A stretch of DNA of 64,000 bases, taken from positions 190,023-254,022 of the IMG/VR virus record IMGVR_UViG_3300033489_000001; one strand, given 5' to 3'. This document shows, in pieces, positions 23,342 to 62,197 of the stretch. The translations under genes were made by a program, and so were the position numbers. Every line of letters begins with the position of its first letter. Position 1 is the first letter of the stretch. The notes beneath the pieces are model-generated. The model saw only the letters and a program-made list of their open reading frames with translations, was not told the DNA's origin and searched no databases. The DNA comes from a virus (taxonomy: Duplodnaviria > Heunggongvirae > Uroviricota > Caudoviricetes).

Positions 23342-24589
23342 TCAAACTAATAACCTTTCGGTTCTTAGGTCAAGATTTAATTCCGATTCTTGCTTCATAA
23401 AGGACCGCCCTCGACCATGCCCTGCCCCTTCGGGGCTCCCGGCTTTGGTCTCCGGTCTTACGTCCTCTCCACAAGCATTTAGTGTCTCTCGATACCTTAG
23501 AGCGACATTTCTTAGGTTTATTGAGGCATTGGCGTCGCGATCATGTACCGCCCCGCAAGAGGGGCATACCCATTCGCTCTCGCCAAGAACCAATTCTTTG
23601 TAGATATATCCGCAACAAGAGCACGTCTTGCTCGATGGAAAAAACCTGCCCGCAAGGGCAATGTTGCTTCCACTGAGCTTCGACTTGTATTCTACCTGAC
23701 GATGAAATTCATAAAAAGCTGCATCTTGAATCGATTTAGCTAACTTATGATTCTTAAGAATCCCTCTTACATTAAGATCTTCTATCCCTATAAATCGGAA
23801 AGTTCTGACCAGCTTAGATGTGATCCGATGCCAAACATTAGATCTGATCTGAGCTACTTTCCGATGAGCTTTGGCAAGCCGAAGGCAGGCCTTTGCTCGA
23901 TTGGATGAACCCTTCTGCTTCTTACTCAGAGACTTACTAAGAATCCTTATTTTCCTCTCAGCTTTTCTAAGAGGTTTAGGGTTCTCAATCTTTTCTCCAG
24001 TAGAAAGAGTAGCTAGGGTTTTAATACCAACATCTACGCCCACCGCGTCTTGGCTATCGCACGCATGGGCATAGACAAAGGTTTCATCCGGGATTTGAAT
24101 TGAAAAAGAAGCAAACCATTTGTCAACAGATCTTGAGATTACAACTGATTTAACCTCTCCTTTGAATCGAAGAGATTGAATCATCTTAATAGGCTTCTTT
24201 AGGAGAGGGAGTTTTAGGTATTTTCCTGTTACTTTGAAATCATTCTCTCCTACATAAAATGAATCCTTAGACTTACCCTTCTTCTTGAATTGAGGGTACT
24301 TAGATTCTTTTTTGAAGAATCTTTTGAAAGCATCTCCTAAATTTTGAATAGCTTTTTGAGGAGCCCACTTAGAAACTTCTCTAACCCAAGGAAATTGATC
24401 ATCCTTAATTGAGTTGAATTCCTTAACTAAGGAGTAACCTGACATTCCTTTTTCACTTTGAGAGTATTTATCCTTCCAAGTCTTCAAAGCCCAGTTATAG
24501 GCAAATCTTGCCGTACCGCTGGCCTTACGCAAGTAGCGTTCGGCCTCTTGGTTGGGGCAGAGTTTGATCCTATGAGCTAATTGAGGCAT
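23342..24589 (-). mobile_element. tnpB: Solo TnpB (IS200/IS605/IS607 OrfB), RuvC intact; omega-RNA expected over the 3' end
   Basis: N-terminal HTH (RIKLCPN..GTARFAYNWAL), VGVDVG, IEDL, CxxC..CxxC, DRDANASINL; no tnpA nearby. Confidence 0.93.
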
Positions 24590-28013: not shown

Positions 28014-28152
28014 CTAACCCAATTTGATCAAGTTTAGGCAGGTTTAGGGCAGTTTACAAAGAAACGATAACTTTACTAACTTTCGTATAAATGAGGAGAC
28101 AAGAAGAGTGAAAACTCGACCCCTACATAGCAGCTGCGGATGGCACTCTCAC

Positions 28153-28226
28153 GTTGTCCGTAGTTCAATGGTAGAACGTTGGGCGGTGGACCCAAAAATG
28201 ACAGTTCAATTCTGTTCGGATAACCA
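28153..28226 (+). tRNA. tRNA-His(GTG), G33
   Basis: G-1:C73 8-bp acceptor; loop CGGTGGA; encoded CCA. Confidence 0.9.
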
Positions 28227-31788: not shown

Positions 31789-32883
31789 CAAATGAAGATC
31801 GAACCAATCCCACAAGTTCAAAAAACAAGACATTGTCCCAGGTGTGGTATTGAAGTTACGCCTAGAACCGAGTCTTGTCCTTCATGTAAAAAGGTCCTAT
31901 TCGCTAGAAAATATTCAGTGCAGGCTAAAGCTTTCGGATACCTCTTTGGAGCCCTAATAACGCTTGCTAGCGTGGAAAGGTTTGTAAGAGGATTCAACGA
32001 TCTGAATGAGATGGCAGTGGCGGCCGTAGTGGTTGTTTCGTTTATTGGACTATCAAGTGCCAGGTTTGTACAACTTCTGATGCCACAAGATTTAGCCGTT
32101 TGGAAGCCGGTTCAGCATTCAATAAGGCCAATTCAACATTTGATAAAAAGATGTTAGGGTAAATGCCCCCTCTACCTAAAATGACTTTAAAACCAGGTTG
32201 CACAGTTCATTTCCAAGGTTGGGGTAACTACTATACTAATCTTAAAACACTCTTACATGAAGCTAAAGAAGGTTATGTGGAACTCAAAGGAGAAGGTGAA
32301 CTATTTTGTGTAGATAACCCTCAAGAGCGTCTTATTGGATTTCAACTATACATCGCTAATAAGGTTGTTTGGAAGACGTGGGATTTTATGATTGGTATAG
32401 ATGACTTCAAAGCTTGTGTAAAGAAAGATCCACGTCTTGCGTATCTTGATACTACCAAAGGACGCCTAGAGTGGGCAGCTAAAATTGAAAATATGTTCCA
32501 ACTGGGCCTACCGAAAAGATCTTGAACATCTATTCCTTTCGGTGTAATAATAAGTACCATGAAACAAATTTTAATCTTAGCCTTTGGTTGTGCTCTTCTG
32601 TTCGGTTGCACTGAGCAACAGCGAGCGAAACAATTTGGCGGCTCTACTTCCACTGCCCTGCCTTGTGACCGTAAGCTAGAAATGATTACCTGGAAGGATT
32701 CTGACTTGTGGCTCCTTACAAGGCAGATGCGAGCGGGTGAAGAATCGGAAACGCATTCCTTTGTTGAAAGTTCAAACTTGGGCTTTGCAGAAGGAAAAAT
32801 CACAGTCACGGAATCTCGGTGCAGGTAAAAATCAATGTTGAAGGCTAAGTACAGATTGAGGCGAAGATCCCTAAATAGGTTTT

Positions 32884-32959
32884 GGGGGTGTAGCCTAGAG
32901 GATTAGGCACCGGTTTCCTAAACCGGCTTTTTACGTAGGTTCGAATCCTATCACCCCCG
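32884..32959 (+). tRNA. tRNA-Arg(CCT)
   Basis: Loop TTCCTAA. Confidence 0.92.
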
Positions 32960-35165: not shown

Positions 35166-36684
35166 TGGCATTTAGTCGGTGTAATATAACCGGGATGGAA
35201 ACCAGAGATTTACATCCAGATGAAATTAGTAACAAGAATCTTCTTGAGCATATCAGAGGAGCTGATGGGGGCTTACCTCCCACGTTTGTTGGGATGACTT
35301 TTGTTCGTCATGTTAAAGAAGGAAGAGGATGGGATTCTGAATTTGCATGGGCAATTTATATTAGTCACGATCCCTGTCATGATGATCATCGTAAACGCTC
35401 AGTACTAGGAGATGACCGCAGTACCGTTATTGCCTTTCATCGAAACAAAGGGATTTTCCGCATTATTGGACGGGAGCTGCCTAAAAAGTTAGCTTTGGAG
35501 CTTGCAAGAGGAGACCTGCCAAAGATTGGAGAACAACCTCCTTATACCAACGGCCGTTTGTTATATTTTTGGTTTCTTTATGACTGGGAATCCCGCGACA
35601 AGCAGCTCTTACTAAAGCCTCCTGGGCCTGATTATGTTTATAGACCAAATGAGAAACTTTACCGTTGTGTACTTGGAATTGATCCTCCTTTGGATAAGAC
35701 GATCGATGAGATCTTAGCTTCTGTAGAATTTGAAGAGGCTAAGACAAAAGAGCCCTTAGGCTCTAAGGAATTTTCCGAGTACCTCGCCCATCATCTATTT
35801 AGCGAGGTTCATAAATTTATGCCTCCGGAAACCTTTGGGTATGGGCTTCCTGGGATTCAATCCAGATTCTTTCGAGGTGAATCCGCATTCACATTGAAAT
35901 CAAAGTGGGGTAACTATATAGTTCAAGTCACAAAGATTCTGGACCCATCAAGTTAAAGGATTCCAAGAATTACGAACTAAGAAAGAGGTGGACTCATGTT
36001 ATTACTGACCCCTTGGGCGTGTATTATAGGCGCAATTGCTTTCATCGTTCTTCTCTTTTTGGTCGAGTTAGATCGTTTTGGTTTTGCCACGCTATTGATG
36101 ATTGCAACGATAGTGGCGGCTCAATACTTTCACATAGCCGATATTTTGGGATGGGTAAGTAAGAACTACGCTTGGACACTAGTTTACGTCATTGTTTATC
36201 TGATATTGGGAATAGGTTGGTCGATTGGAAAGTGGGTTTTATTTCTACGAAAGTTCAACCGGAAGCGGCTAGAAGCTGTTTCTGCTGTACAGTCAACCGC
36301 AAAACAAGAAGACCCTCCAACACAATCTGTAAAGGATATTTCCGTCCACTTGAAACATGAGATGTATAAGGGGACTTATTTATCACAGAGACCCAAGGCA
36401 TCGGACTACAAGGGGACAATAATCGCATGGATGATCTGGTGGCCCATATCTATGATTAGCACCTTCTTGAATGATCCCGTCAGAGAACTATTCAACATCG
36501 TCTATGACCAGCTCAGTGGACTTTATCAAACCCTCGCTGACAAGATCGTTTCAGATATTGAGAAGAAGTAAACCTCCCCGGTGAACCTAAAGGCTTGACA
36601 CAACCCTCGATAGGTGTATGATAGGAGATATGTTTTTCGGACGGGCCACAGAAAGCAGTACGCGCTCTGAGAGTAAAATCTTTC

Positions 36685-36774
36685 GGAGAGGCGACGAACA
36701 TTGGTGAGTCGTGGCATTTTGCTAAAATGTTGGGCGTAACTGTCCTGGGGGTTCGATTCCCTTCCTCTCCGCCA
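36685..36774 (+). tRNA. tRNA-Ser(GCT)
   Basis: Loop TTGCTAA; long variable arm; CCA. Confidence 0.92.
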
Positions 36775-41509: not shown

Positions 41510-41593
41510 ATGTTTCAGCGCCTTTCAGCTTCTCTCCTTCTATCTTTATCATTGCTTTTAACTAAGCTGCGAGCGCTCCCGTCTATCCACTAA
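41510..41593 (+). CDS. Leader peptide 2 MFQRLSASLLLSLSLLLTKLRALPSIH upstream of the Leu/Ser tRNA cluster
   Basis: Follows TTGACA(41471)-N17-TAGTCT; 10 Leu codons (all six types) and 5 Ser codons. Confidence 0.8.
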   Translation: MFQRLSASLLLSLSLLLTKLRALPSIH

Positions 41594-44370: not shown

Positions 44371-44556
44371 ATGCGTTATTACCCTTCAGATGATGCTCTA
44401 ATTATTAAATCCTGGTGCGATAATCCGGAAGAACAAGCTATAGAGCAGGCTAGGCATTTAGCTTGCCTCCCCTTCGCTTTCAAACAGATTTGTTTGATGC
44501 CGGATACGTACCTAGGATATGGGGTGCCGATTGGCGGGGGCATCCGTTAGTTCTTG
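44371..44556 (+). pseudogene. Truncated 5' fragment of a second rtcB (61 aa)
   Basis: IKSWCDNPEEQAIEQARHLACLPF...LMPDTYLGYGVPIGG then stop. Confidence 0.8.
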
Positions 44557-44600
44557 AGCCTTATTGTGTGTTAATAATCCATTTATGTTTCAATGAAGTG

Positions 44601-45398
44601 ATGCCCATTTCACTGAAACACCTAGATTTAACTATTCCTGAACTGGCTTACTTATTAGGTTTTCTTCAGACCGATGGAACTATGGCAAAAGAAAGTAGGA
44701 ATAGAGGTCGCATTGTTGTAGAGGTATCTAAACGTGACAGAGATATACTAAGAAAACTCAAAAAAATCATTCCTGTTTACTCTTCTTTGAGGACAAGAAA
44801 AAGAGATACTAATTTTAAGAAAGATCATAATAGTGTCATTTGGCGTGTATTTGATCAATCTATACGAGAACTATTTAATTTAGCAGGCTTACCGTACGGT
44901 AAAAAATCTGACTTGGTGTGTGCCCCAAATGTTCCCTTTTCCAAGCCCGATTACTATCGTGGCATTATTGATGGGGATGGCTCATTAGGTTTTACTAGCG
45001 CTGGATTCCCTTTTTTGTCTTTAACAACAGCAAGTTCTTCTTTAGTGGATAGTTATTTGACTTACTTATTCTCATTGACAGGAAAGAAGAAGATTCTGCA
45101 TCCTAATAAACGAGACGCCGTGTACAATCCATGCGTTTTTAAAGAAGACGCGCAGACCGTTGCTAAAAATTTATACTATGAAGGTTGTTTGTCTTTAGAT
45201 AGAAAGAAACGATTAGCCCACTCTATTCTTTTGTGGCAACGTCCGAATAATATGCGAAAACGAGGGAATTTTAAACATTGGACGCCGGAAGAGGATGCTG
45301 TAGTTAAACGTGAATCAACAACTATAGCCGCCAACCTACTTGGACGAACTGAGATAAGTATTCGTGTGAGGGCCAGTCGAATTCGGAAACGGAAATAA
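44601..45398 (+). CDS. Double-motif LAGLIDADG homing endonuclease
   Basis: AYLLGFLQTDG and YYRGIIDGDGS; C-terminal WTPEED HTH; start reassigned to 44601. Confidence 0.9.
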   Translation: MPISLKHLDLTIPELAYLLGFLQTDGTMAKESRNRGRIVVEVSKRDRDILRKLKKIIPVYSSLRTRKRDTNFKKDHNSVIWRVFDQSIRELFNLAGLPYGKKSDLVCAPNVPFSKPDYYRGIIDGDGSLGFTSAGFPFLSLTTASSSLVDSYLTYLFSLTGKKKILHPNKRDAVYNPCVFKEDAQTVAKNLYYEGCLSLDRKKRLAHSILLWQRPNNMRKRGNFKHWTPEEDAVVKRESTTIAANLLGRTEISIRVRASRIRKRK

Positions 45399-45435
45399 TC
45401 CTTGATCTTCTTCCTCTTTCGGTGTAGTAATAAGT

Positions 45436-46542
45436 ATGGGCAAACCTATTAAAATATTTGCTGACAATCCTGATCCGGCTACAATGAATCAATTCTATGA
45501 GGCAATGAAGCAAGATAGTGCGGTTCAGGGAGCGATCATGCCAGACGTTCATAAAGGATATACGCTTCCTATTGGATCGGTCGTGGCCACGGAGGGTATG
45601 ATTTATCCTGCATGGGTCGGATACGATATTGGGTGTGGTGTATGCGCAACCCTGACTAGTTTTGACAAGAGAGAGATAGACATTCATCGTGAAGCAATCT
45701 TCAAGAAAATTTACGAAACGGTTCCCATTGGGCTTGGGGTGCATCATGCGAAGATTCAGGAACCGTGGGATACTAAACAACTTCAGCATACAAAAAAGCT
45801 AGCTACCATCTATAAGGACAAGCATGGGGAGCTACAATTAGGGTCGTTAGGGTCAGGTAACCATTTTATTGAGGTCGGATACGATGAAAATGATGGGATC
45901 TGGGTCGTTGTTCATAGCGGTTCTCGTGGGGTTGGCCATGGCGTTGCTTCTCACTACATGGCATTAGCATCCGGGGGAGGCCAAAAAGAATGGCACTTTG
46001 GGTTAAAAACCGACAGTCAAGAAGGTCAAGACTATATTGCTGATCTAGATTTCTGTCTTGCCTTTGCACTTGAAAACAGGCTCAGGTTATTAAACAGCAC
46101 TATAGCTTCAATCCAAACCTTTTGTTCCGGTGGAAAAGGGCTAAGCTCAGAACTTATCAACCGAAACCATAATCATGCTGTACAAAAAGATGGTAGATGG
46201 ATCCATCGAAAGGGGGCTACTCATGCTGAGGAAGGGATGTTTGGTGTTATCCCTGGAAACATGCGCGATGGTTCTTTCATTGTTATAGGAAAAGGCAATC
46301 CAGAATCTTTATGCTCTAGCTCTCACGGTGCTGGTAGAGTAAAAGGTCGAGCAGAAGCAAAAAGAACCATAACACTAGAGCATTTTCAGGATCAAATGAG
46401 AGAGGTTACGGCTAGAGTTGATGAAACCGTCCTTGATGAATCTCCAGGCGCTTACAAGAATATTTTTGAGGTTATGCTCCTTCAAAGAGATTTGGTAGAA
46501 GTGCTGCACAAAGTAAACCCAATGATTAACGTCAAAGGATGA
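45436..46542 (+). CDS. rtcB: RtcB RNA ligase
   Basis: MPDVHKGY.LPIG, VGYDIGCG, LGSGNHFIE, HSGSRG, HNH, HRKGA, SSSHGAGR, DESPGAYK. Confidence 0.96.
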   Translation: MGKPIKIFADNPDPATMNQFYEAMKQDSAVQGAIMPDVHKGYTLPIGSVVATEGMIYPAWVGYDIGCGVCATLTSFDKREIDIHREAIFKKIYETVPIGLGVHHAKIQEPWDTKQLQHTKKLATIYKDKHGELQLGSLGSGNHFIEVGYDENDGIWVVVHSGSRGVGHGVASHYMALASGGGQKEWHFGLKTDSQEGQDYIADLDFCLAFALENRLRLLNSTIASIQTFCSGGKGLSSELINRNHNHAVQKDGRWIHRKGATHAEEGMFGVIPGNMRDGSFIVIGKGNPESLCSSSHGAGRVKGRAEAKRTITLEHFQDQMREVTARVDETVLDESPGAYKNIFEVMLLQRDLVEVLHKVNPMINVKG

Positions 46543-46907
46543 AAACCGTAATGTCCGAGCAAGAAGACTTGGTTGAAATCCTTGTCAAATTAGAGCCCTT
46601 GGCGGTTATTAAAGGATGACACGGAGTGCTATGCCTCTCAAAAAACATACGACTGTGGTGGGCATAAAATGGAGGCAAGATAAAGACAACTTGGCTTTTT
46701 ATCGTGGCCCAATCTATTTCTTAGCAAATGATCCAAAATGTAGCCGCCGTGGTAACTTTGGTATGTTTGATGGGGAGAAGGTAACAACATCGGGTAATAC
46801 ACTAGAGGTAAATTATGATGCCATCACCGATTGGTTGCCTTTTGAAGACGTGGCAAATCTTCTTCCTATTGATGTGCAAGACCTAAATTAGAAATAGGAT
46901 AAAAATA

Positions 46908-47957
46908 ATGAGTGACAATAGAGCTTTAGCAACGATTAGGCGGGTGGCCTCCATAGAAGTCATTCCGAATGCCAATAACATTGAACTAGCTCATATTGAC
47001 GGATGGCAATGTGTTGTCAAAAAAGGAGAGTTCACTTCCGGTGACCTTGGCGTTTATTTTGAAATCGACTCTTATTTGCCAATCGAACCTCGGTACGAGT
47101 TCTTACGTAAGTCTTCGTATAGGAAGCTACCCGAGTTAACTGACAGGCGTTGCGAAGGTTTTAGACTTCGTACGGTTAAGCTCAGAGGCGCTTTATCACA
47201 AGGCTTGCTGCTACCTCTATCTACGTTTCCTGAACTAGATAATGCAGAGGTTGGCTCAGATGTAACCCAGACTCTCAATGTAGCCTTATTTGAGCCTCCA
47301 ATAGATGCATCTCTAGAGGGTAAGGTCAAAGGCTTATTTCCAGGGTATCTCCATAAGACACACCAGGATCGCATACAAAATGTTCTAGAATATCTTACGC
47401 TATATAAAGATGAGTTGTATGAAGTAACAGAAAAGATAAACGGCACATCAATGACCGTGTTGTATAACAAGGGCTACTATGGTGTGTTTGGTCACGCTAT
47501 GGAATTCTGTCTCGATACTCCTAACGCGTTCATTAGAGTAGCTGAAGCGTTAGGTATCGAAAAGGCTCTAAGAGCGCTAAACAAGAATATAGCTATCCAA
47601 GGTGAGCTTGCTGGCGAGGGTATCCAGGGAAATCCCTTGAAGATTAAAGGGCATAAGTTTCTAGTGTTTGATATTTGGGATGTTGATACATGCAAGTACT
47701 TTACAGCGGTAAAGCGTAACCTCATACTAAGAGAGCTTGTTGACGTAGGACTCAAACTAGACCATGTGCCTGTAGTAAAGATTATGTATCTCAGAGATAT
47801 TCCGGAGCTAACACTTGAGAAATTATTAGCATTTGCTGATGGCATGTCTTTGATTAACCCAAAAGTACGTAGAGAGGGCGTTGTCTTCAAGTCTTTTGAA
47901 AACGTAGATGTACCATCATTCAAAGTTCTCTCGAATGATTACTTGCTACACGAGTGA
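46908..47957 (+). CDS. ATP-dependent RNA ligase, Rnl2/DRB0094 type
   Basis: VYFEIDS, TEKINGTS (motif I), QGELAG, VFDI, REGVVFK, FKVLSN. Confidence 0.92.
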   Translation: MSDNRALATIRRVASIEVIPNANNIELAHIDGWQCVVKKGEFTSGDLGVYFEIDSYLPIEPRYEFLRKSSYRKLPELTDRRCEGFRLRTVKLRGALSQGLLLPLSTFPELDNAEVGSDVTQTLNVALFEPPIDASLEGKVKGLFPGYLHKTHQDRIQNVLEYLTLYKDELYEVTEKINGTSMTVLYNKGYYGVFGHAMEFCLDTPNAFIRVAEALGIEKALRALNKNIAIQGELAGEGIQGNPLKIKGHKFLVFDIWDVDTCKYFTAVKRNLILRELVDVGLKLDHVPVVKIMYLRDIPELTLEKLLAFADGMSLINPKVRREGVVFKSFENVDVPSFKVLSNDYLLHE

Positions 47958-48246
47958 GGGGTTTCCGTCATGCTGCGGTTGCGGGTACTGTTGTCTCAAA
48001 GCGCCGTGCATTGTAGCCTATAAGGAATACGGAGCGTTTGTTACAATATGCCCAGGTTTGCGTTGGAACGGAGAGAGGCACGTATGCAAACTTATGGAGC
48101 TTCCCGGCCCTAAAGGTGAGCTTTATCGAAGAGAATTGTTTGCCGGAGCCGGGTGTACTAGTAACTTGAACTCATGGCGAAGAGAAAAACTTAAAAACAG
48201 AATAGTTGAAGTTCAAAAGAGGTATCAACGTTTAGCCACAAGATAA
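47908..48246 (+). CDS. Cys-rich (CxxCxxCC) protein
   Basis: CCGCGYCCLKAPC; start uncertain. Confidence 0.5.
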   Translation: MYHHSKFSRMITCYTSEGFPSCCGCGYCCLKAPCIVAYKEYGAFVTICPGLRWNGERHVCKLMELPGPKGELYRRELFAGAGCTSNLNSWRREKLKNRIVEVQKRYQRLATR

Positions 48247-48464
48247 AGAAAAGTCATGACGAAAGAAACCAGACGGGACTTAATTTTAGGAGAGATCAGC
48301 GATAGAGTTGCTGATTTATTGTATTACAACAGAAAAGAAGATGAGGAACTACCTGTTGGAGAGATAGAAAAGGCTATAGCTTCTGGAGAGATTAGTGTAG
48401 ACGAAATGGCGGCTAAATTCCGGGAAGTTATTGAAGAATCTTTGAAGGAAGACTCCGAAGAAAA

Positions 48465-48731
48465 ATGAAACATCAAACTAGAGAAGTAATGACTCCTGAG
48501 AACCCGCGCTGGAGTAAATTCATAGAGTTGCTTGAGGGGCCGGAGGGGTGTAATTTCAAGAAAGATAAAAAGCGTGCATATACTTGGAAGTGTAAAGGTG
48601 GTACCGACAAATCCTATGCAATCGCAATTCTTAAAGAAATGGGCAACATAGATATAGATGCTTCAGTGGAATATTTCGATGAACACGGGGGTCACTGCGA
48701 TTGTGAGATTGTTTTTAATGTGAACCTTTGA
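48465..48731 (+). CDS. DUF2695-like protein
   Basis: GGHCDCEIVFN C-terminal motif. Confidence 0.65.
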   Translation: MKHQTREVMTPENPRWSKFIELLEGPEGCNFKKDKKRAYTWKCKGGTDKSYAIAILKEMGNIDIDASVEYFDEHGGHCDCEIVFNVNL

Positions 48732-48743
48732 GGAAGTAAGTTA

Positions 48744-49697
48744 ATGGATTTTAAAGCAATAGCTGAGAAAAATAAGATCCTCGAAATTCAAGTTGGTTCC
48801 CACTTGTTTGGAACTAACACGCCGGACAGTGATTTGGATTTAGTAGGCATCTTTCTGCCCTCCGAAGAGATGGTTTACGGTTTTCAAGAATGTGACGAAG
48901 TGGACCTGAGCATAGTGGCTAAAGATGAAACCGGGCGAAATACCTCGGAAGCTATTGACCGAAAATATTACGAGTTCCGAAAGTTTGTTCGCTTGGCTAT
49001 GCAGAATAACCCAAACATTTTGCATGTGCTATTTGTAGATCAGAAGAACATTGTAGCTATCAACCAGGCTGGAAAAAGACTACTAGCCAAGGCCGAGCTT
49101 TTTCCTCACAAAGGAGCGCATCACCGGTTTGTCAAATATGCCGATGGGCAACGACACAAGATGAGGATTAAACCCGAAAACTATGCCAAGTTGGAACAAG
49201 GACTAGAGGTTCTCAGTAAAGTAGACCCTCACATGGTTTTAGGTGAACTACGCAATACCCCTCCCTTTGTTGATAAGGGTAAAGGGAGGCATATTTGCTT
49301 AGGCGACTTGAACTTTGAGGCTGGAGTATACGCAAAGAAAGCCATTGGGATGATCAAGACTCGGTTAAGCAAAGCTACGAGCCGGGTTCAGCTCTATACA
49401 AAATTTGGTTTTGACGTGAAATTTGGATCAAATCTCATCCAGCTTTTGAAAGAAGGCATTGAGATAATGAACACGGGGCGGATTGTGATGCCTTTAGCTT
49501 ACCGGCAAGACATCCTGGATATCAAGCAGGGGAAGTATTCCGTGGAAGAGATTTTGAAGTGGGCCGACGATTTGGTTGAGGAAGCCAGGGGGGCTTATGA
49601 AACGTCCAAACTGCCCACCGAACCCCGTAGCAAAGAGATTGAAGCCTTCGTTATGGAAGAAGTGAGAGGCTTCTTGACGCGATCCCTAATATGCTAA
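48744..49697 (+). CDS. Pol-beta-family nucleotidyltransferase (RlaP-like)
   Basis: GSHLFGTNTPDSDLDLVGIF, NNPNIL..LF, K..SNLIQLL. Confidence 0.85.
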   Translation: MDFKAIAEKNKILEIQVGSHLFGTNTPDSDLDLVGIFLPSEEMVYGFQECDEVDLSIVAKDETGRNTSEAIDRKYYEFRKFVRLAMQNNPNILHVLFVDQKNIVAINQAGKRLLAKAELFPHKGAHHRFVKYADGQRHKMRIKPENYAKLEQGLEVLSKVDPHMVLGELRNTPPFVDKGKGRHICLGDLNFEAGVYAKKAIGMIKTRLSKATSRVQLYTKFGFDVKFGSNLIQLLKEGIEIMNTGRIVMPLAYRQDILDIKQGKYSVEEILKWADDLVEEARGAYETSKLPTEPRSKEIEAFVMEEVRGFLTRSLIC

Positions 49698-56564: not shown

Positions 56565-56908
56565 AACTAAAACTTGAACTAATCCCGCTTCCAGTGTAGT
56601 AATAGATATGGACGCTGCTGACAATTATAAAAACCGTCTGATTGAAAGTGGGGACCTAAACGGGGCCATTCATTTCTGTGTGAACAATATGAAACGCGAT
56701 TATGCCGCTGCCCGTGAAGAGGTCTATAAAGCCCACTACGCGGGGAAGGGTTTACCTAGGCCTACTGAAAAGTACGTTGGTTATTAGTCCCACTCATTAA
56801 GTAGGTGGGCTTACTTTAATTGATGACTCATTCTGTAAAAGAAGATAAGGCATCAATTAGGTAGTATTGTTCAAAAAGAATGAAAGTCAAAAAGCAAGCG
56901 GAGTAAAG

Positions 56909-57250
56909 ATGGAGCAAGCGGTTCTTATATCGGTCTTCGATCTTGCGGGGCCGGAATGCTGGATGGACACTGACGGGCAACTCCTTTATGATAAGTTCGT
57001 TCCACTGCTTCGGGAAGGGAAAAAGGTAGCCCTGTCTTTTAAGTACGTGGAGATGATCACCCCCACGTTTCTCAATGCCGCCATTGGCCAGCTTTACAGT
57101 GAATTCACCGAGGAGCAGATTCGTGAGCTGTTATCGGTAACAGACTTGGGGCCGGAAGACCTGGCTGACCTAAAGAAGGTTGTGGATAACGCTAAGAGGT
57201 ACTTCGCCAGCAAAGATAAAAAATCTTGTGCTTTTTCTATTGACAAGTAG
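56909..57250 (+). CDS. STAS-like (DUF4325-type) protein
   Basis: DGQLLY..L.EG.KV.LSF..VE.ITPTFLNAAIGQLY. Confidence 0.8.
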   Translation: MEQAVLISVFDLAGPECWMDTDGQLLYDKFVPLLREGKKVALSFKYVEMITPTFLNAAIGQLYSEFTEEQIRELLSVTDLGPEDLADLKKVVDNAKRYFASKDKKSCAFSIDK

Positions 57251-57279
57251 AAAGCGTTACGTCAGACTGAATCAATAAT

Positions 57280-57399
57280 ATGCGCACCCAGCTCACAACG
57301 ACCCTGACCGTGACTACAGCAACCCGCTGTACGGTCGTCGTATGCGCTGCGGCTGCCGCTACAGGTACCGGGCCTCTGGCTGCAATCATCTGGCGATAA
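57280..57399 (+). CDS. Leader peptide 3 MRTQLTTTLTVTTATRCTVVVCAAAAATGTGPLAAIIWR upstream of the Trp/Cys/Gly/Val/Ala/Thr tRNA cluster
   Basis: Follows TTGACA(57240)-N17-CAGACT; 28 of 39 residues are T, A, V, C, G or W. Confidence 0.82.
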   Translation: MRTQLTTTLTVTTATRCTVVVCAAAAATGTGPLAAIIWR

Positions 57400-57417
57400 T
57401 CCCAAGCCAGAATAGAT

Positions 57418-57488
57418 AGGCCAGAGGCGTTGGTTGCCGAGCAGACTCCAAATCTGCTGTGGACAGAGTTCGATTCTCTGCTGGCCTG
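57418..57488 (+). tRNA. tRNA-Trp(CCA)
   Basis: GCAGA-CTCCAAA-TCTGC. Confidence 0.9.
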
Positions 57489-57714
57489 CTAGCAGGGGTT
57501 GAACCATCGAATTGAAGGTGATGGAAGTGAGCATGAGCCCTAACGATCAACAGAAAATAGACTGTTCCTGGTATGAATGGCTCTCTGATTTATCACCCTT
57601 ATTTAAGCTCGCTATAGCTCTAGGGCTGGTTGCATTTACCGTATGGATGGCTTGGAGGCACTTATGAACAAACGAACGACTGGACCGTTGTGTAGAAGCT
57701 CTCGGATGGTTTTT

Positions 57715-57783
57715 GTCCCAGTCCATCCGGGATGGAAACGAGCTGCAAACTCGTTGAGATGGGTCCGACTCCCATCTGGGGCT
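57715..57783 (+). tRNA. tRNA-Cys(GCA), atypical D and T loops
   Basis: ACGAG-CTGCAAA-CTCGT; T loop TCCGACT. Confidence 0.82.
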
Positions 57784-57788
57784 CAAAT

Positions 57789-57859
57789 GCGAGTGTGATG
57801 CAACGGTAGCATGTCTCTTTGCCATGGAGGAAATTCGGGTTCGAACCCCGACGCTCGCA
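57789..57859 (+). tRNA. tRNA-Gly(GCC)
   Basis: Loop TTGCCAT. Confidence 0.9.
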
Positions 57860-57867
57860 CTGAATTT

Positions 57868-57939
57868 AGCGGCTGGGCCGGACGGTAAGGCGTCTCTTTT
57901 ACAAGGAGAAAAATATAGGTTCAACTCCTATAGCCGCTA
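57868..57939 (+). tRNA. tRNA-Val(TAC)
   Basis: Loop TTTACAA. Confidence 0.88.
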
Positions 57940-57982
57940 CTAGAGAAATGAGGTGGGCAAGAAAACAACAAAGATTGAAATT

Positions 57983-58055
57983 GGGGATGTAGCTCAGTCG
58001 GGAGAGCGCTGGTCCTGCAAACCGGAAGCCGCTGGTTCGATTCCAGTCATCTCCA
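57983..58055 (+). tRNA. tRNA-Ala(TGC), C33
   Basis: G3-U70; loop CCTGCAA. Confidence 0.93.
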
Positions 58056-58088
58056 CCGTAAAGAAGAAAGTTGAGGAAGTCATGTTTT

Positions 58089-58158
58089 GGGATCGTAGCT
58101 CAATTGGGAGAGCATCCGGTTCGCATCCGGGTTGTGGGATCGTTTCCCACCGGTTCCA
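58089..58158 (+). tRNA. tRNA-Ala(CGC), atypical T loop
   Basis: G3-U70; loop TTCGCAT; T loop ATCGTTT; very short variable region. Confidence 0.75.
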
Positions 58159-58208
58159 CTACTCAAGCACTACGCCGGGGACAAACGCACGGGTAACGCC
58201 CGTTTCCT

Positions 58209-58282
58209 GCCCCCGTAGCTCAATCTGGTAGAGCGCCTACCCCGTAAGTAGGATGTTGCAAGTTCAAGCCTTGTCGGGGGCT
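58209..58282 (+). tRNA. tRNA-Thr(CGT), C33
   Basis: CCTAC-CCCGTAA-GTAGG. Confidence 0.92.
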
Positions 58283-58289
58283 CTCCGAT

Positions 58290-58361
58290 GCCTCTGTCGC
58301 TCAGTGGTGGAGCACCTCTCTTGTAAGGAGGTTGACGTGGGTTCGATTCCCACCGGAGGCT
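58290..58361 (+). tRNA. tRNA-Thr(TGT)
   Basis: Loop CTTGTAA. Confidence 0.92.
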
Positions 58362-58365
58362 CTGT

Positions 58366-58439
58366 GCTGGCGTAGCTCAATGGTAGAGCCCCACCTCGGT
58401 AAGGTGGTGACGCAAGTTCGATCCTTGCTGCCAGCTCCA
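58366..58439 (+). tRNA. tRNA-Thr(GGT), C33
   Basis: CCACC-TCGGTAA-GGTGG; CCA. Confidence 0.93.
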
Positions 58440-58514
58440 TTTCGGTGTAGAAAGGGTCAAGAAAGATTTTTATGAGAAGGCAGGAGCAGGACCTCTCATG
58501 TTGGAGATCTAGCT

Positions 58515-59899
58515 ATGACTAATAATACAATTACAAATTGTGATGGCAAAGCTACTATTTACATCGAGTCTAAGTTCGAAACACATTGTCCATTATGCAA
58601 AGCTGAATATATAAACCACCAGCATCCTATGAAACCAGCAGGCGTTATAGGCTGGCGTAGTTGTAAATGTACATTTGAGACAAAAGAAGTTACACCAGGC
58701 GTATCTATCATTACACAAATTCCACCTAAAGCACCAGATACACAAGGATAAGGTCCTGCTACCGGCTCAAGTTGATTTCCAAAAATTCGGTGTAATACTT
58801 TAGCAATTACCTATGTTCATCACATTGACCAAAGATTTTTACGAAAAGGTTTACACCCTTCTAGTTGAACAAGCTTGTGCAGAACCCTCATATAAGGAAG
58901 ATTTCATCCGGTACTTCACAGACCCAAAGGAACATTTCCACACCTTGGAATGGCGGTTCCAGGGAAGGTTTGGTTTTGGGGGTAAATTCTGGCGTCAAAG
59001 CATAGGCCATAAAAGAGGGCCAGAGGGAGAAGGCGTTACTATTTACACGCACTATATCTCCTACTATCCCGAGAATTACACTAAAGAGTTAGATAAGCTG
59101 GCCACCGAAATTAACGAAAGTTTGATGAAGCTTACATGGGAAAATAAAATCGTTCGGATGGCGTTACTAGTCAAAGAGTAAGTATGGTCGAACGAGATCC
59201 TAACTCATTCCTTTTGTTGTTATAAATGTATTGACAGTGATTTTTAGATCACTGTCAATACCAAGAGAGCAATATCTGTTCAAAGAATTTCACTGGTTTC
59301 AATTACTGGTTTCAACCGCCTTCGATGATTAAAGTAGCTGAAACCTTTTTACTGCTTTTGCATTCAAAAGTCTTACTTAGAAAGATCGCAAGGGCAAGTC
59401 AAATTTTTAGGACGGACATCAATAAGGCCATCCGTCCGGTCCATGTCCAAAACGTCGCTTTGTTTTCGTTTCTAGCTAATATTGAAAAAGATCAAAATAG
59501 TGCTAAATAAGCATTATGAAAATGATGCTGTTAGGACTTGTGTTTCTTGCTGATGTGGCGTCCCCCGGTTCTTGCCTTTGTAATCGTAGTTCTGAAGAAG
59601 AGGAAGGCGTACCCGTTCCTGAATATACAGTAACTATCTCAATTCCCAGCTGTTCGTGCTTTAAAGATAATGCGGCTTGGGTTTATGTTTATAATGGAGA
59701 AGCCGGGGATTCCGAGCATTACAATCCAAGTTTTCAGACGATAGAGATCTTTTGCAATCAAAAATTATCAGGTGATGTTCAAGTCAAAGAAGGCCTTCAC
59801 GAAATTCAGGCTCTTACCTCCAAGGGTACTTATGCATCACGGGTTATCGAAGTAGTACCAGATGGGGGACCCCGCGAAGTAAACCTAACTTGTCCATAG
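58515..59899 (+). other. Hypothetical CDSs (58515-58751, 58813-59181, 59516-59899)
   Basis: ORF track; 59516 has a signal-peptide-like N-terminus. Confidence 0.55.
59229..59260. other. Perfect 13-bp inverted repeat containing TTGACA on both strands
   Basis: TATTGACAGTGAT-TTTTAG-ATCACTGTCAATA. Confidence 0.8.
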
Positions 59900-60032
59900 G
59901 TAGGTTTCTCAAAAAAATTGAGCTAAGCCAAAAAATTGATTGACAAGTCTTTGCTTTGGCTTCAAACTACTTGATAATCAAAGTTAGCTCGCCATCTTTA
60001 AGAGCGAGACAAACTGATCCTTTAGCCAACAT

Positions 60033-60092
60033 ATGTACCAACAACGACAACAGCGAGAGCAAGAACGGGAGCGACGCCAACAGCGTCGCTAA
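60033..60092 (+). CDS. Leader peptide 4 MYQQRQQREQERERRQQRR upstream of the Glu/Gln/Arg tRNA cluster
   Basis: 17 consecutive CAR/GAR/CGN codons; TTGACA at 59940 upstream. Confidence 0.85.
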   Translation: MYQQRQQREQERERRQQRR

Positions 60093-60106
60093 TACTCGTA
60101 GCTCAC

Positions 60107-60182
60107 GCACCTGTCGTCTAGTCTGGTTTAGGACACTGGCTTTTCACGCCAGCAAACACAAGTTCAAATCTTGTCGGGTGCG
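60107..60182 (+). tRNA. tRNA-Glu(TTC)
   Basis: CTGGC-TTTTCAC-GCCAG. Confidence 0.93.
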
Positions 60183-60189
60183 CCGGAAG

Positions 60190-60225
60190 GCTCCTATCGG
60201 CTAATCTGGTAGGCCGCTAGGAGCA
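60190..60225 (+). pseudogene. Internally deleted tRNA (acceptor stem plus D arm only)
   Basis: GCTCCTA-TC-GGCT-AATCTGGT-AGGCC-GC-TAGGAGC-A. Confidence 0.6.
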
Positions 60226-60229
60226 TTAG

Positions 60230-60301
60230 GCACCTGTCGTCTAAAAGGCAGGACCCCGGACCCTCAATCCGACAATACGAGTTCGATTCTCGTCAGGTGC
60301 G
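60230..60301 (+). tRNA. tRNA-Glu(CTC), C33
   Basis: CGGA-CCCTCAA-TCCG. Confidence 0.9.
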
Positions 60302-60306
60302 CTGAT

Positions 60307-60377
60307 TCGGGAGTAGCACAATGGCAGTGCGGTAGACTCTGGATCTATTAATGTTGGTTCGATTCCAGCCTCCCGAG
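60307..60377 (+). tRNA. tRNA-Gln(CTG)
   Basis: Loop CTCTGGA. Confidence 0.92.
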
Positions 60378-60384
60378 CCGGTTT

Positions 60385-60456
60385 GTCTCTGTAGATCAAC
60401 GGATAGATCTTCGGTCTACGGAACCGACAATATAGGTTCGAATCCTATCAGAGACG
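60385..60456 (+). tRNA. tRNA-Arg(ACG)
   Basis: Loop CTACGGA. Confidence 0.92.
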
Positions 60457-60468
60457 CTGAGAGTCTTT

Positions 60469-60541
60469 GCCCGTGAAGCTCAAATGGATGAGCCCTTGCT
60501 TCCGAAGCAAGAGGATGGAAGTTCGAATCTTCTCACGGGTG
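60469..60541 (+). tRNA. tRNA-Arg(CCG)
   Basis: Loop TTCCGAA. Confidence 0.92.
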
Positions 60542-60553
60542 CTTGAAAACTAT

Positions 60554-60627
60554 TCGGGCGTCGTTCAAAGGTAGGACACCGGTCTTTGACTCCGTTAATG
60601 TTGGTTCAATTCCAGCCGCCCGAGCCA
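60554..60627 (+). tRNA. tRNA-Gln(TTG)
   Basis: Loop CTTTGAC; weak anticodon stem; CCA. Confidence 0.87.
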
Positions 60628-60757
60628 GTAGACCTGTTTACAAGAAAGACAGGTCTGTTACAACTAGATTCGTCTCTCTCAATAGAAAAGGAAGCCCCAC
60701 CATTTCTACCTCTTCCACTACTGAATCTTTTTATAATTATTCTAGGGTATACCCTAA

Positions 60758-62197
60758 ATGAAAGCTAGGATCAGTTATGTGGCTTTAGAAACTAACTCTG
60801 GAAAGATCCAGAAGTTAGAAGAACTTTATACTATTTATAGGTCCTATGTTCAAACTTGTATTGACAAGATGATTTCGGATAAGAGCCCTAAAGTTCTCCC
60901 TTCAAACCGTAGAACCTATTTTCCAACTTCTGATATTTTAAGCTCTCAAATTTTAAAAAATGCCCAAATGCATAGTGTCCAAGTTGTAGAAACTTGGATC
61001 AAACAACGTTACGCTCACAAACTTAGGAAGTACTTAAATACTCAAGATCTAACTAGCCATCAAAAACTAGAACTTCGTTGCATAGGAAAATATCAACTCA
61101 AAAAGCCGGGTAAGTTCGGTAAAGGAATCATCTCACAAGAGATGATTGACCTTTATTGGGGTTGGGTTTGGAATCCTGAGATAGCTGGGAAAACCCCTCA
61201 AATCTCTGAATCTTTTCCGATGTGGATGTCAGAGATGACTTGTGTTTTTGGATCTTCCGAAGATTCAAGTCACTTTGGTTGGTGGCTCAGATTCTCTTCT
61301 TTGCAAAACGGAGTTAGGATTCAGATTCCTTTAGCTTATAACCCCTATCTCAAAAAGGTTGAAGGTTTAGCAAAATCTGTTTTAGTTAGGAAGCGTGAAG
61401 GCCGTTGGACTTTTCAATTTTGTGAGAAAGATCTTGAGGAAGAAAACGAAGAGGAAAAAAAGCCCAAAGAATTTGATGGCTCTCAAGGCAAAATAGGGAT
61501 TGATGTTGGATTAAACGTTATAGCTGCTACTTCTGATGGAAGGCTTTATGGGGAAGCTTTCAAATCAGAGTTTGACTATCTTTACGCCAAGGTTAGAAAC
61601 CTAAGATCCAACCGATTTAGGCAAGGACTCAAGAGTGATTCAAGAAGACTTGCTAGATTGGAAGTAAAGCTCTCGGGTCAAATTAAAACTATTACAGGAA
61701 CTATCTCTAACCAACTTGTCAAGGCTTACCTTAATTATACCTTCGTTATTGAGGACTTAGACTTAAGAGGTTGTAGGGGACAAAAGCGCTTCGCATATAG
61801 AGCGCTTCATTCTTCCTTAAGCCATAAGGCTAAGATTGAAGAAGTAAACCCCGCTTATACTTCTCAACCGTGTCCCTCTTGCGGTCATATTTCCAGGTCT
61901 AACAGATCTGGGGTAAAGTTTATCTGTCAGAACTGTGGCAGAAGATCTCATGCTGATGTGATTGGAGCGATCAATTTGCTCGGACGTTCCGGGGACAAAC
62001 AAATTGATCGTTGTGAAGATCCATCGGAAGTAAGAGCCCTTCTAAGAGAGCGAAGCCTACTTCGTAGGATCAGTTCCTTGGATCGGCTTAAAACAAAAGA
62101 GCTGAAACCGAACAGCCAGAGGCTTACTACCAAGGGATCTGAGAATTCAGACGTTGGCACAGCCTCAAATCAGGTAGAAGCTCATGTGCAAGTTTGA
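60758..62197 (+). mobile_element. tnpB: Second solo TnpB-like RNA-guided nuclease (479 aa, divergent N-terminus)
   Basis: IGIDVG, VIEDL, VNPAYTSQPCPSCG, CQNCG..HADVIGAINL; no tnpA and no adjacent CRISPR repeats. Confidence 0.88.

Follow-up and report, generated by a model that had tools for sequence, protein, structure and literature searches.

A soil phage of ~412 kb, known from an IMG/VR virus record of 411,618 bp with direct terminal repeats and 44% G+C, carries 36 transfer RNA (tRNA) genes and one transfer-messenger RNA (tmRNA) gene. All of them lie on the + strand, clustered by amino acid, inside the window analysed here, a stretch of 64,000 nucleotides that comprises bases 190023-254022 of the record. 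The 36 tRNAs, which are those of the whole genome, cover every amino acid except Asp; a tRNA-Asp was not found. In this report, we are concerned with leader 3, a short open reading frame (ORF) in front of a cluster of nine tRNA genes (Trp...Thr), which spans 57418-58439 according to ARAGORN. We found at least three codon-matched leaders in this genome, of which leader 3 is one, and the RNA of leader 3 is predicted to pair with tRNA-Trp, the first tRNA of the cluster. Coordinates are window positions unless they are prefixed with L025, L050, L051 or L052, which are the related sequences described below. The features of the locus are these:

57240-57268, + strand: sigma-70-type promoter, with TTGACA at 57240-45, a 17-nt spacer and CAGACT at 57263-68; an A/T-rich tract lies upstream
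57280-57399, + strand: leader 3 ORF, ATG to TAA, 39 codons, with the stop 18 nt before tRNA-Trp
57418-57489, + strand: tRNA-Trp(CCA), called by ARAGORN and kept in L025, L051 and L052
57533-57667, + strand: small ORF of 44 amino acids (aa), led by a Shine-Dalgarno sequence, with four Trp and one hydrophobic helix, between tRNA-Trp and tRNA-Cys
57715-58439, + strand: eight distal tRNAs called by ARAGORN, namely Cys(GCA), Gly(GCC), Val(UAC), Ala(UGC), Ala(CGC), Thr(CGU), Thr(UGU) and Thr(GGU)

An earlier note on this DNA, made from the letters alone, had described the composition of the ORF and the identity of the nine tRNAs, and both descriptions hold. In the frame at 57280-57399, 28 of the 38 residues are Thr, Ala, Val, Cys, Gly or Trp: 11 Thr (ACC, ACA, ACG and ACT), 8 Ala (in four codons), 4 Val, 2 Cys, 2 Gly and 1 Trp. 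ARAGORN agrees that the genes behind it are Trp, Cys, Gly, Val, two Ala and three Thr. Thus, what follows leader 3 is a set of nine tRNAs and one 44-aa ORF, not genes for amino-acid biosynthesis or related proteins. The products of the 44-aa ORF are 70-80% identical in two related lineages, which marks it as a real gene within the tRNA operon, and it appears to belong to the same transcription unit as the tRNAs. Two of the tRNAs, tRNA-Trp and tRNA-Cys (57715-57784), are atypical in that ARAGORN places the anticodon at position 31; both are kept in the relatives. In Rfam, with E up to 1, tRNA-Trp gives only a weak tRNA-clan match of 30.5 bits and tRNA-Cys is not listed.

The distance from the end of the -10 hexamer (CAGACT in the window) to the ATG is 11 nt here and 5 nt in the relatives. 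From the sequence, transcription is predicted to start near 57275, which would leave a 5' untranslated region of only 4-6 nt and make the ORF near-leaderless. No Shine-Dalgarno sequence precedes leader 3; nearby ordinary genes, including the 44-aa ORF, have one. The composite pattern TTGACA-N16-18-NANNNT-N3-14-ATG has five matches on the + strand of the genome, and three of these head tRNA clusters, at leader 3, at the Leu/Ser leader and at tRNA-Ser(GCU). By itself, TTGACA is not enriched, its 100 copies in the genome being as expected, and none occurs on the + strand between 57240 and 59231.

Codon match and conservation of the reading frame

To each tRNA we assigned the codons that it can read, and codons rather than residues were counted. 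The nine downstream tRNAs read 27 of the 38 codons of leader 3, against a fraction of 0.276 in the long ORFs of the genome (binomial P 3e-8). This match belongs to one frame: the other two + frames hold 8 and 9 cognate codons among 37 each, and none of 5000 dinucleotide shuffles reached 27 (mean 14.4). Further, among the 3,500 ATG ORFs of 12-60 codons in the whole genome, leader 3 is the best match to its codon set. When all 3,500 were compared with the codon sets of seven tRNA groups, the ORFs at ranks 1, 3 and 4 proved to lie directly before the Glu/Gln/Arg, Trp...Thr and Leu/Ser groups. Each of these three leaders tops the ORFs of the genome for the codon set of its own cluster, and the diagonal dominates a matrix of leaders against clusters. 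The three arrangements of promoter, short ORF and first tRNA are found at 41510, 57280 and 60033.

The match reaches the level of the codon. In the Gln/Arg/Glu leader (leader 4), which precedes Arg(ACG) and Arg(CCG), Arg occurs only as CGN, whereas in a short ORF before Arg(CCU) and Arg(UCU), four of five Arg codons are AGA or AGG. Codons for Lys, Arg(AGR) and Asn abound in a short ORF that runs into tRNA-Arg(CCU), both in the window (32835-32906) and in L025 (L025:2388-2450). Its codon match is weak (7 of 22, P 0.013); its position and part of its sequence are conserved. We rejected an ORF at 36630 as a candidate Ser(AGY) leader, as its frame is full of stops in L025 though the DNA is conserved. 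About 50 nt before tRNA-Ser(GCU) are conserved at the DNA level there (36595-36700; L025:6640-6703), and, given the closed frame in L025, they are a conserved 5' element that does not code for a leader peptide.

Relatives were sought in several collections. Queries with three neighbouring proteins, two DNA patterns and a small-protein alignment found no close relative in IMG/VR. In INPHARED, DNA searches returned only generic tRNA similarity, and protein searches only distant AAA-ATPases at 27% identity; LR756500.1 (462 kb, 24% GC), considered as a relative, proved to be unrelated. A contig scan for further relatives yielded only three spurious partial matches, and PHROG scans of ten large proteins gave no usable hallmark. 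A metagenome scan with the RlaP protein of the phage led to contig L025, which has an RlaP that is 82% identical, a G+C content of 38% and tRNA genes in the same order. With the 44-aa ORF as the query, we obtained L050/L051, which represent a third lineage, and L052, which is identical to L025 in the region of leader 3. The leader is present in both related lineages:

L025:17549-17665: leader 3 orthologue, 38 codons
L051:1132-1248: leader 3 orthologue, 38 codons

Both lineages keep the TTGACA (with the ATG 6 nt nearer), the start, the stop, the I-V-W-R-stop ending, the 18-nt spacer and tRNA-Trp. Within the leader ORF there are three indels, each of exactly 3 nt; the flanks have indels of 1, 2, 5 and 6 nt. 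Residue identity between the leader of the window and that of L025 is only ~45%, and 24 and 25 of the 37 residues of the relatives' leaders still fall among Thr, Ala, Val, Cys, Gly and Trp, many of the replacements being swaps between Thr and Ala. These leaders match the smaller tRNA sets of their own genomes with P values of 9e-8 and 7e-6. Between L025 and L051 there are eight synonymous and six non-synonymous changes, and four of the latter are Thr/Ala or Ser-to-Thr swaps. The 3-nt indels, the retained residue bias and the match to each genome's own tRNAs are several lines of evidence that frame and composition have both been maintained. An orthologue of the Gln/Arg/Glu leader likewise occurs in L025; 3' of it lies a tRNA-Glu(UUC)-like sequence (L025:19337-19412) that ARAGORN does not call.

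Hairpins of the leader RNA and the position of the ribosome

A transcript that begins at 57276 folds as two hairpins, with an overall z of -5.1. Their parts are as follows:

57282-57359, + strand: hairpin I, in which the Thr-rich codons 2-14 pair with the Cys/Val/Ala codons 16-27; the base of the hairpin adjoins the AUG
57364-57381, + strand: anti-tRNA strand (segment 1), which spans codons 29-34 and forms the 5' side of the outer helix in hairpin II
57385-57417, + strand: inner hairpin of hairpin II, in which AUC/UCUGGC at 57385-94 pairs with GCCAGA/GAU at 57406-17, in both the minimum-free-energy (MFE) and the centroid structures
57419-57438, + strand: 3' arm of the outer helix of hairpin II, which is tRNA-Trp positions 2-20

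Hairpin I has a dG of -35.4 kcal/mol and a z of -4.0 (-3.6 in L025). Across the three lineages, its 16 core pairs show two compensatory double changes, three wobble changes and no disruptive change. Hairpin II has a z of -5.3 (-5.0 in L025). Its inner hairpin holds the UGG codon (57391-93) in the 5' arm, the stop codon (57397-99) in the loop, and the AGCCAGA at 57405-11; the pairing persists in the three lineages as Watson-Crick, G.U and Watson-Crick.

The outer helix of hairpin II joins the leader to the tRNA. As the earlier note had proposed, 57372-81 can pair with the 5' end of tRNA-Trp (57419-28) over 10 bp with one G-U. By itself, this helix is no more than moderately unusual: the P value against shuffles is 0.009 for a contiguous helix of this length and 0.04 for the duplex energy (z -1.96), and three other tRNAs of the window also reach 10-12 bp. 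In the relatives, the helix extends to 11 bp (P 0.003). The pair 57379:57421 is G-C in the window and A-U in the relatives, and the adjacent U.G becomes C-G. The acceptor stem of tRNA-Trp itself meets the same C-to-U change only as a U.G wobble; thus, the leader strand tracks tRNA-Trp more faithfully than does the tRNA's own 3' strand. It is this conservation with compensatory change that makes the helix credible. We conclude that the anti-tRNA helix of 10-11 bp is real, and the folding models predict it to be the ground state.

The other pairings that we sought gave no such signal. Between the arms of hairpin I and 57440-58460, pairing is no better than in shuffles (P 0.7 and 0.86), and an alternative akin to a 2:3 antiterminator was found in none of the three lineages. 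When the 5' arm of hairpin I is covered, the 3' arm folds on itself and hairpin II is unaltered, again in the three lineages. A scan of both strands from 56800 to 60800 for sites resembling intrinsic terminators returned none, against 4.0 +/- 1.9 in shuffles, and in the relatives no U run follows hairpin II (UUAGGAGCC). No switchable transcription stop was thus found between leader 3 and the tRNAs; the helix with tRNA-Trp occupies that place. The lack of a single terminator-like site in 4 kb may mean that the phage, or else its host, does not depend on terminators of the canonical type. Elsewhere in the window, at 28129-28166, the first 12 nt of tRNA-His can pair, over 12 contiguous bp closed by a short loop, with the sequence just 5' of this tRNA. 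In the MFE structure of the tRNA-His precursor, this helix replaces the acceptor stem, and no convincing codon-matched ORF lies beside it. It is possibly another anti-tRNA clamp, as judged by folding.

The effect of translation was modelled by masking a 30-nt ribosome footprint at each codon and computing pair probabilities, and the calculation was repeated with only the RNA 3' of the ribosome allowed to pair, because a helix cannot close across a ribosome. For leader 3, in the window and in L025 alike, the probability of the tRNA-Trp acceptor stem is 0 when no ribosome is present or when one stands at codons 2-27, and for stalls at codons 2-27 the probability of the anti-tRNA helix is ~1. With a ribosome anywhere from codon 28 or 29 to the stop, the acceptor-stem probability is ~1. 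The earlier note had ascribed one logic to leaders 2 and 3. The masking models do not bear this out: in the Leu/Ser leader (leader 2), an early stall at codons 2-15 frees the tRNA and the late codons sequester it, which is the classical logic, whereas leader 3 frees its tRNA only from codon 28 to the stop. In the Gln/Arg/Glu leader, the modelled acceptor stem is independent of ribosome position. Within the responsive zone of leader 3, 7 of 12 codons are cognate (8 of 12 in L025), and every Trp codon of the three leader variants falls in this zone.

A proposed gate on tRNA-Trp and its alternatives

The explanation that we favour, to which we would give roughly an even chance, is that leader 3 is a translated, near-leaderless sensor ORF of 39 codons that heads the nine-tRNA operon and gates the folding of tRNA-Trp. 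Its codon content would have been selected to call for the tRNAs encoded behind it, and the speed of a ribosome on it would report the supply of those tRNAs. The default state would be closed: as long as no ribosome occupies the final third of the ORF, hairpin II should prevail, the acceptor and D stems of tRNA-Trp could not form, and RNase P should not mature this tRNA. A ribosome located between codon 28 and the stop would cover the anti-tRNA strand, and the cloverleaf could form. A ribosome that waits for its cognate tRNA at UGG, or at the Thr, Gly or Ala codons of this zone, would keep the clamp open longest. The outcome would be negative feedback, at least on tRNA-Trp. Such a gate would act on how tRNA-Trp folds and, through this, on its processing, rather than by intrinsic termination; this is the output that can be supported, as no terminator was found and the relatives lack a U tract downstream of the helix. 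In silico, the locus has a sequestering helix that is opened by a ribosome in the leader ORF, as in attenuators of the ermC/cat type.

Several observations weigh against this explanation. The lack of a Shine-Dalgarno sequence means that translation rests on a leaderless start, which is itself predicted, and hairpin I abuts the AUG. The helix could act only on the first tRNA, and the other eight lie 300-1000 nt downstream. As modelled, a stall in codons 1-27 would keep the clamp closed, and the gate therefore leaves unexplained why 21 of these codons are cognate to the eight distal tRNAs. Indeed, 9 of the 11 Thr codons, all of the Val and Cys codons and 6 of the 8 Ala codons sit at such positions, so that the modelled switch works in the wrong direction, or not at all, for the majority of the amino acids that are matched. 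The modelled logic is a different one for each of the three leaders of the genome. Nearest-neighbour folding ignores tRNA tertiary structure, co-transcriptional folding and the kinetics of ribosome and polymerase. The comparison covers three lineages, two of them mutually close. Finally, Ala, Val and Thr are abundant in the codon-aligned antisense frame as well (25 of 37), and for this reason we assigned the strand from the promoter, the tRNAs and the relatives.

The early cognate codons could have a role in any of three ways. One possibility is timing, in which the total transit time sets whether a ribosome is present on the clamp as the 3' strand of the tRNA emerges. Another is an effect on the whole operon, either pyrBI-like or dependent on Rho. 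The third possibility is that the leader must be fully decoded before tRNA-Trp is released.

The second of these leads to a different explanation of the locus, namely transcription attenuation of the whole operon, by coupling or with the aid of a factor, such that all nine tRNAs are controlled, as in pyrBI or tnaC. Hairpin II would halt transcription without the aid of a U tract, or Rho would load at the C-rich 5' arm of hairpin I, and a ribosome close behind the polymerase, or stalled at the loading site, would prevent termination. Such a scheme would account for the codons of all nine tRNAs. Like the pyrBI leader, the ORF passes through the 5' arm of hairpin II; the base of this hairpin is 10-11 contiguous G+C-rich pairs, followed in the window by GUUGGUUG; and the 5' arm of hairpin I is poor in G. 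Nevertheless, we think it unlikely. The terminator scan was empty, the relatives have no U run after the helix, and the stable, conserved hairpin I would hide a Rho site. Further, a response of the pyrBI sign would produce less tRNA when tRNA is scarce.

It is somewhat less likely still that the element works as RNA only, with the hairpins as signals for the processing, stability or folding order of the tRNA precursor (a protective 5' stem, for example, or leader-acceptor pairing that delays RNase P), and with the frame and its composition as by-products of G+C-rich paired RNA. Covariation in both hairpins and near-invariant synonymous sites in codons 27-39 do indicate a strong constraint at the RNA level. 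A frame of such composition is open by chance in ~38% of shuffles, and the comparable 12-bp hairpin before tRNA-His has no convincing ORF. An RNA-only element is difficult to reconcile with a codon match that occurs in one frame only and is absent from composition-preserving shuffles, with indels that are multiples of 3 in all three cases, and with replacements that remain among the cognate amino acids. In addition, the other two leaders, of quite different composition, each fit the cluster behind them, and in one of them the fit extends to the family of Arg codons used.

The earlier note had proposed a switch in which 57372-81 pairs either with an "antidote", AGCCAGA at 57405-11, which frees the tRNA, or with the tRNA 5' end, which sequesters it; a terminating ribosome would cover the antidote and turn the tRNA off, and a ribosome stalled upstream would leave the tRNA on. 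Of this proposal, the codon-matched leader and the anti-tRNA helix stand, and both are kept in two further lineages. The antidote and the ribosome logic do not, and we regard the switch as very improbable. Both pairings do exist in the window, that of 57375-81 with the antidote comprising 7 bp. Yet there are two copies of UCUGGC (57375-80 and 57389-94, segments 1 and 2) and two of GCCAGA (57406-11 and 57420-25, segments 3 and 4). In the predicted fold, the second UCUGGC takes the antidote, and 2:3 is nested inside the anti-tRNA helix, 1:4, so that both form together; stalls at codons 2-27 leave the anti-tRNA helix at a probability of ~1. The state with 1:3 and a cloverleaf has a computed energy of -45.8 kcal/mol against -54.4, and is therefore 8.6 kcal/mol less stable, a gap that tRNA tertiary structure, which the folding model ignores, could narrow. 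Across the three lineages, 1:4 is Watson-Crick in all, 2:3 is Watson-Crick, G.U and Watson-Crick, and 1:3 is Watson-Crick, Watson-Crick and, in L051, an A.C mismatch. In L025, the antidote shares a C-to-U change with the tRNA, matched by G to A in the anti-tRNA strand, and the RNA made before transcription of the tRNA is predicted to fold with 1:3. In L051, the antidote keeps its C and the anti-tRNA strand has changed to A, yet 1:4 and 2:3 are perfect. Finally, a ribosome at the stop codon would sit between the two strands that it is supposed to allow to join, and would hinder the helix rather than favour it. The antidote is thus disfavoured, though 1:3 may occur transiently in L025.

That the ORF encodes a functional small hydrophobic peptide, placed before tRNAs by coincidence, seems just as improbable: its C-terminal two thirds are hydrophobic and the final I-I/V-W-R is conserved, but identity with the L025 peptide is only ~45% with the composition kept, the relatives have Asp or Ile at one position of the hydrophobic stretch, and the sister leaders, a pure Gln/Arg/Glu peptide and a Leu/Ser peptide, share nothing with it except that they match their tRNAs.

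Known leaders and the tRNA region of the phage

The design that we favour for leader 3 can be compared with several known systems. Among the attenuators of enterobacteria, thrL senses Thr and Ile, and ilvL, the leader of ilvGMEDA, senses Ile, Val and Leu; further leaders of this kind are trpL, hisL, leuL and pheL. Like leader 3, the multivalent members have a short leader ORF that is dense in the sensed codons of several amino acids, and conserved hairpins that overlap the ORF, such that ribosome position selects the RNA fold. Leader 3 differs from them in that tRNAs would be the regulated genes, the terminator hairpin with its U tract and the 2:3 antiterminator are absent, the ORF is predicted to be near-leaderless and the modelled ON zone is its last third. 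Nor does it belong to an Rfam leader family: a cmscan of 57000-60700 with E up to 1 returned only tRNA-clan and chance matches, with no Thr_leader, Trp_leader, His_leader, Leu_leader or T-box. Having neither terminator, nor 2:3 alternative, nor protein-coding targets, nor a match to the Rfam models, leader 3 lacks the tested defining features of classical attenuators, of which pheL provides an example (PMC3082878).

Translational attenuation of the ermC/cat type (PMC8274638, PMC5499644) is similar in that a helix hides a downstream element, a ribosome in a short leader ORF opens the helix, and no terminator is needed. The hidden element there is a ribosome-binding site, whereas in leader 3 it is the 5' half of a tRNA; the stall there is that of a drug-bound ribosome, whereas a hungry codon would be expected here. 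In mycobacteria, leaderless polycysteine short ORFs are cysteine-responsive attenuators (bioRxiv 10.1101/834739), and stalling at Cys codons driven by VapC4 has been linked to tRNA cleavage (PMC13096801). These resemble leader 3 in having a codon-enriched short ORF at the 5' end of a polycistronic transcript, leaderless there and predicted to be nearly so here, which would couple decoding speed to the operon. They sense one amino acid and act on protein-coding targets, as opposed to the six amino acids, nine tRNA genes and direct tRNA pairing of leader 3. The pyrBI leader of E. coli has an ORF that extends, as here, through the 5' arm of the regulatory hairpin, which the ribosome physically blocks. 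However, it senses UTP by polymerase pausing and has a true terminator; in leader 3, the 3' arm is the tRNA and there is no U tract. The T-box is likewise a cis-acting leader RNA that reads the status of tRNA, but it is untranslated, binds uncharged tRNA directly and controls genes for aminoacyl-tRNA synthetases and amino acids.

The region around leader 3 also contains genes of RNA repair and of mobile elements:

44463-49697: RNA-repair module, between the Leu/Ser and the Trp...Thr tRNA groups, with a LAGLIDADG-domain ORF, RtcB, RNA ligase and RlaP
44463-45398: LAGLIDADG-domain ORF, immediately before RtcB
45436-46542: RtcB
46908-47957: RNA ligase with a PHA02142 OB fold
48744-49697: RlaP, an RlaP-type nucleotidyltransferase
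23342-24589, - strand: TnpB/IS605 OrfB-type gene, flanking the tRNA region
60758-62197, + strand: TnpB/IS605 OrfB-type gene, flanking the tRNA region immediately 3' of the Glu/Gln/Arg cluster

A further TnpB/IS605 OrfB-type gene (L052:91-1290) lies just 5' of the leader 3 orthologue in L052, and L050:7004-7426 encodes a PTH2-type peptidyl-tRNA hydrolase a few kb from the tRNA genes of its lineage. The position of RtcB, RNA ligase and RlaP between tRNA clusters is consistent with a phage that manages a damaged tRNA pool. Extra tRNA sets beside repair genes of the RtcB type are also a feature of the supernumerary tRNA arrays (L-arrays), whose expression is turned on by impaired translation; one such stress-induced array is the trn operon of Anabaena sp. 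PCC 7120 (PMC8421152). The Anabaena array is controlled not by a leader but by a repressor, TrcR, which binds direct repeats in its promoter (PMC10272220), and the terms "leader" and "attenuat" are absent from PMC8421152.

We found no account of leader peptides before tRNA genes, or of control of tRNA genes by translation sensing, in the full-text literature, a coverage that leaves subscription journals outside. As far as we have searched, the use of leader-peptide sensing for tRNA genes, in which a helix that sequesters the tRNA replaces the terminator, is thus unpublished. A broader proposal, which we put forward tentatively and hold to be less probable than the gate itself, is that this is leader-peptide sensing with a new output. 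A leaderless mini-ORF written in the codons of the phage's own tRNAs would gate tRNA folding and maturation by RNase P through pairing with the acceptor and D strands, so that folding would be the step at which tRNA supply is regulated, with neither terminator nor protein factor. A set of such sensors, alongside RtcB, RNA ligase and RlaP, would rebuild a tRNA pool depleted by the host or by the phage.

It has long been asked why phages carry tRNA genes and how they time the expression of these genes; current ideas invoke codon compensation and an escape from the anticodon nucleases of the host (PMC10264068). Leader 3 offers a concrete and mutable element in this regard, with a conserved helix between ORF and tRNA, a compensatory pair at 57379/57421 and three natural variants, and its design could serve as a compact, codon-specific reporter of tRNA availability. 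If a sensor that mirrors the codons of the tRNAs behind it does operate here, the phage would measure decoding capacity for each class of codon, and would respond separately for each set of tRNAs.

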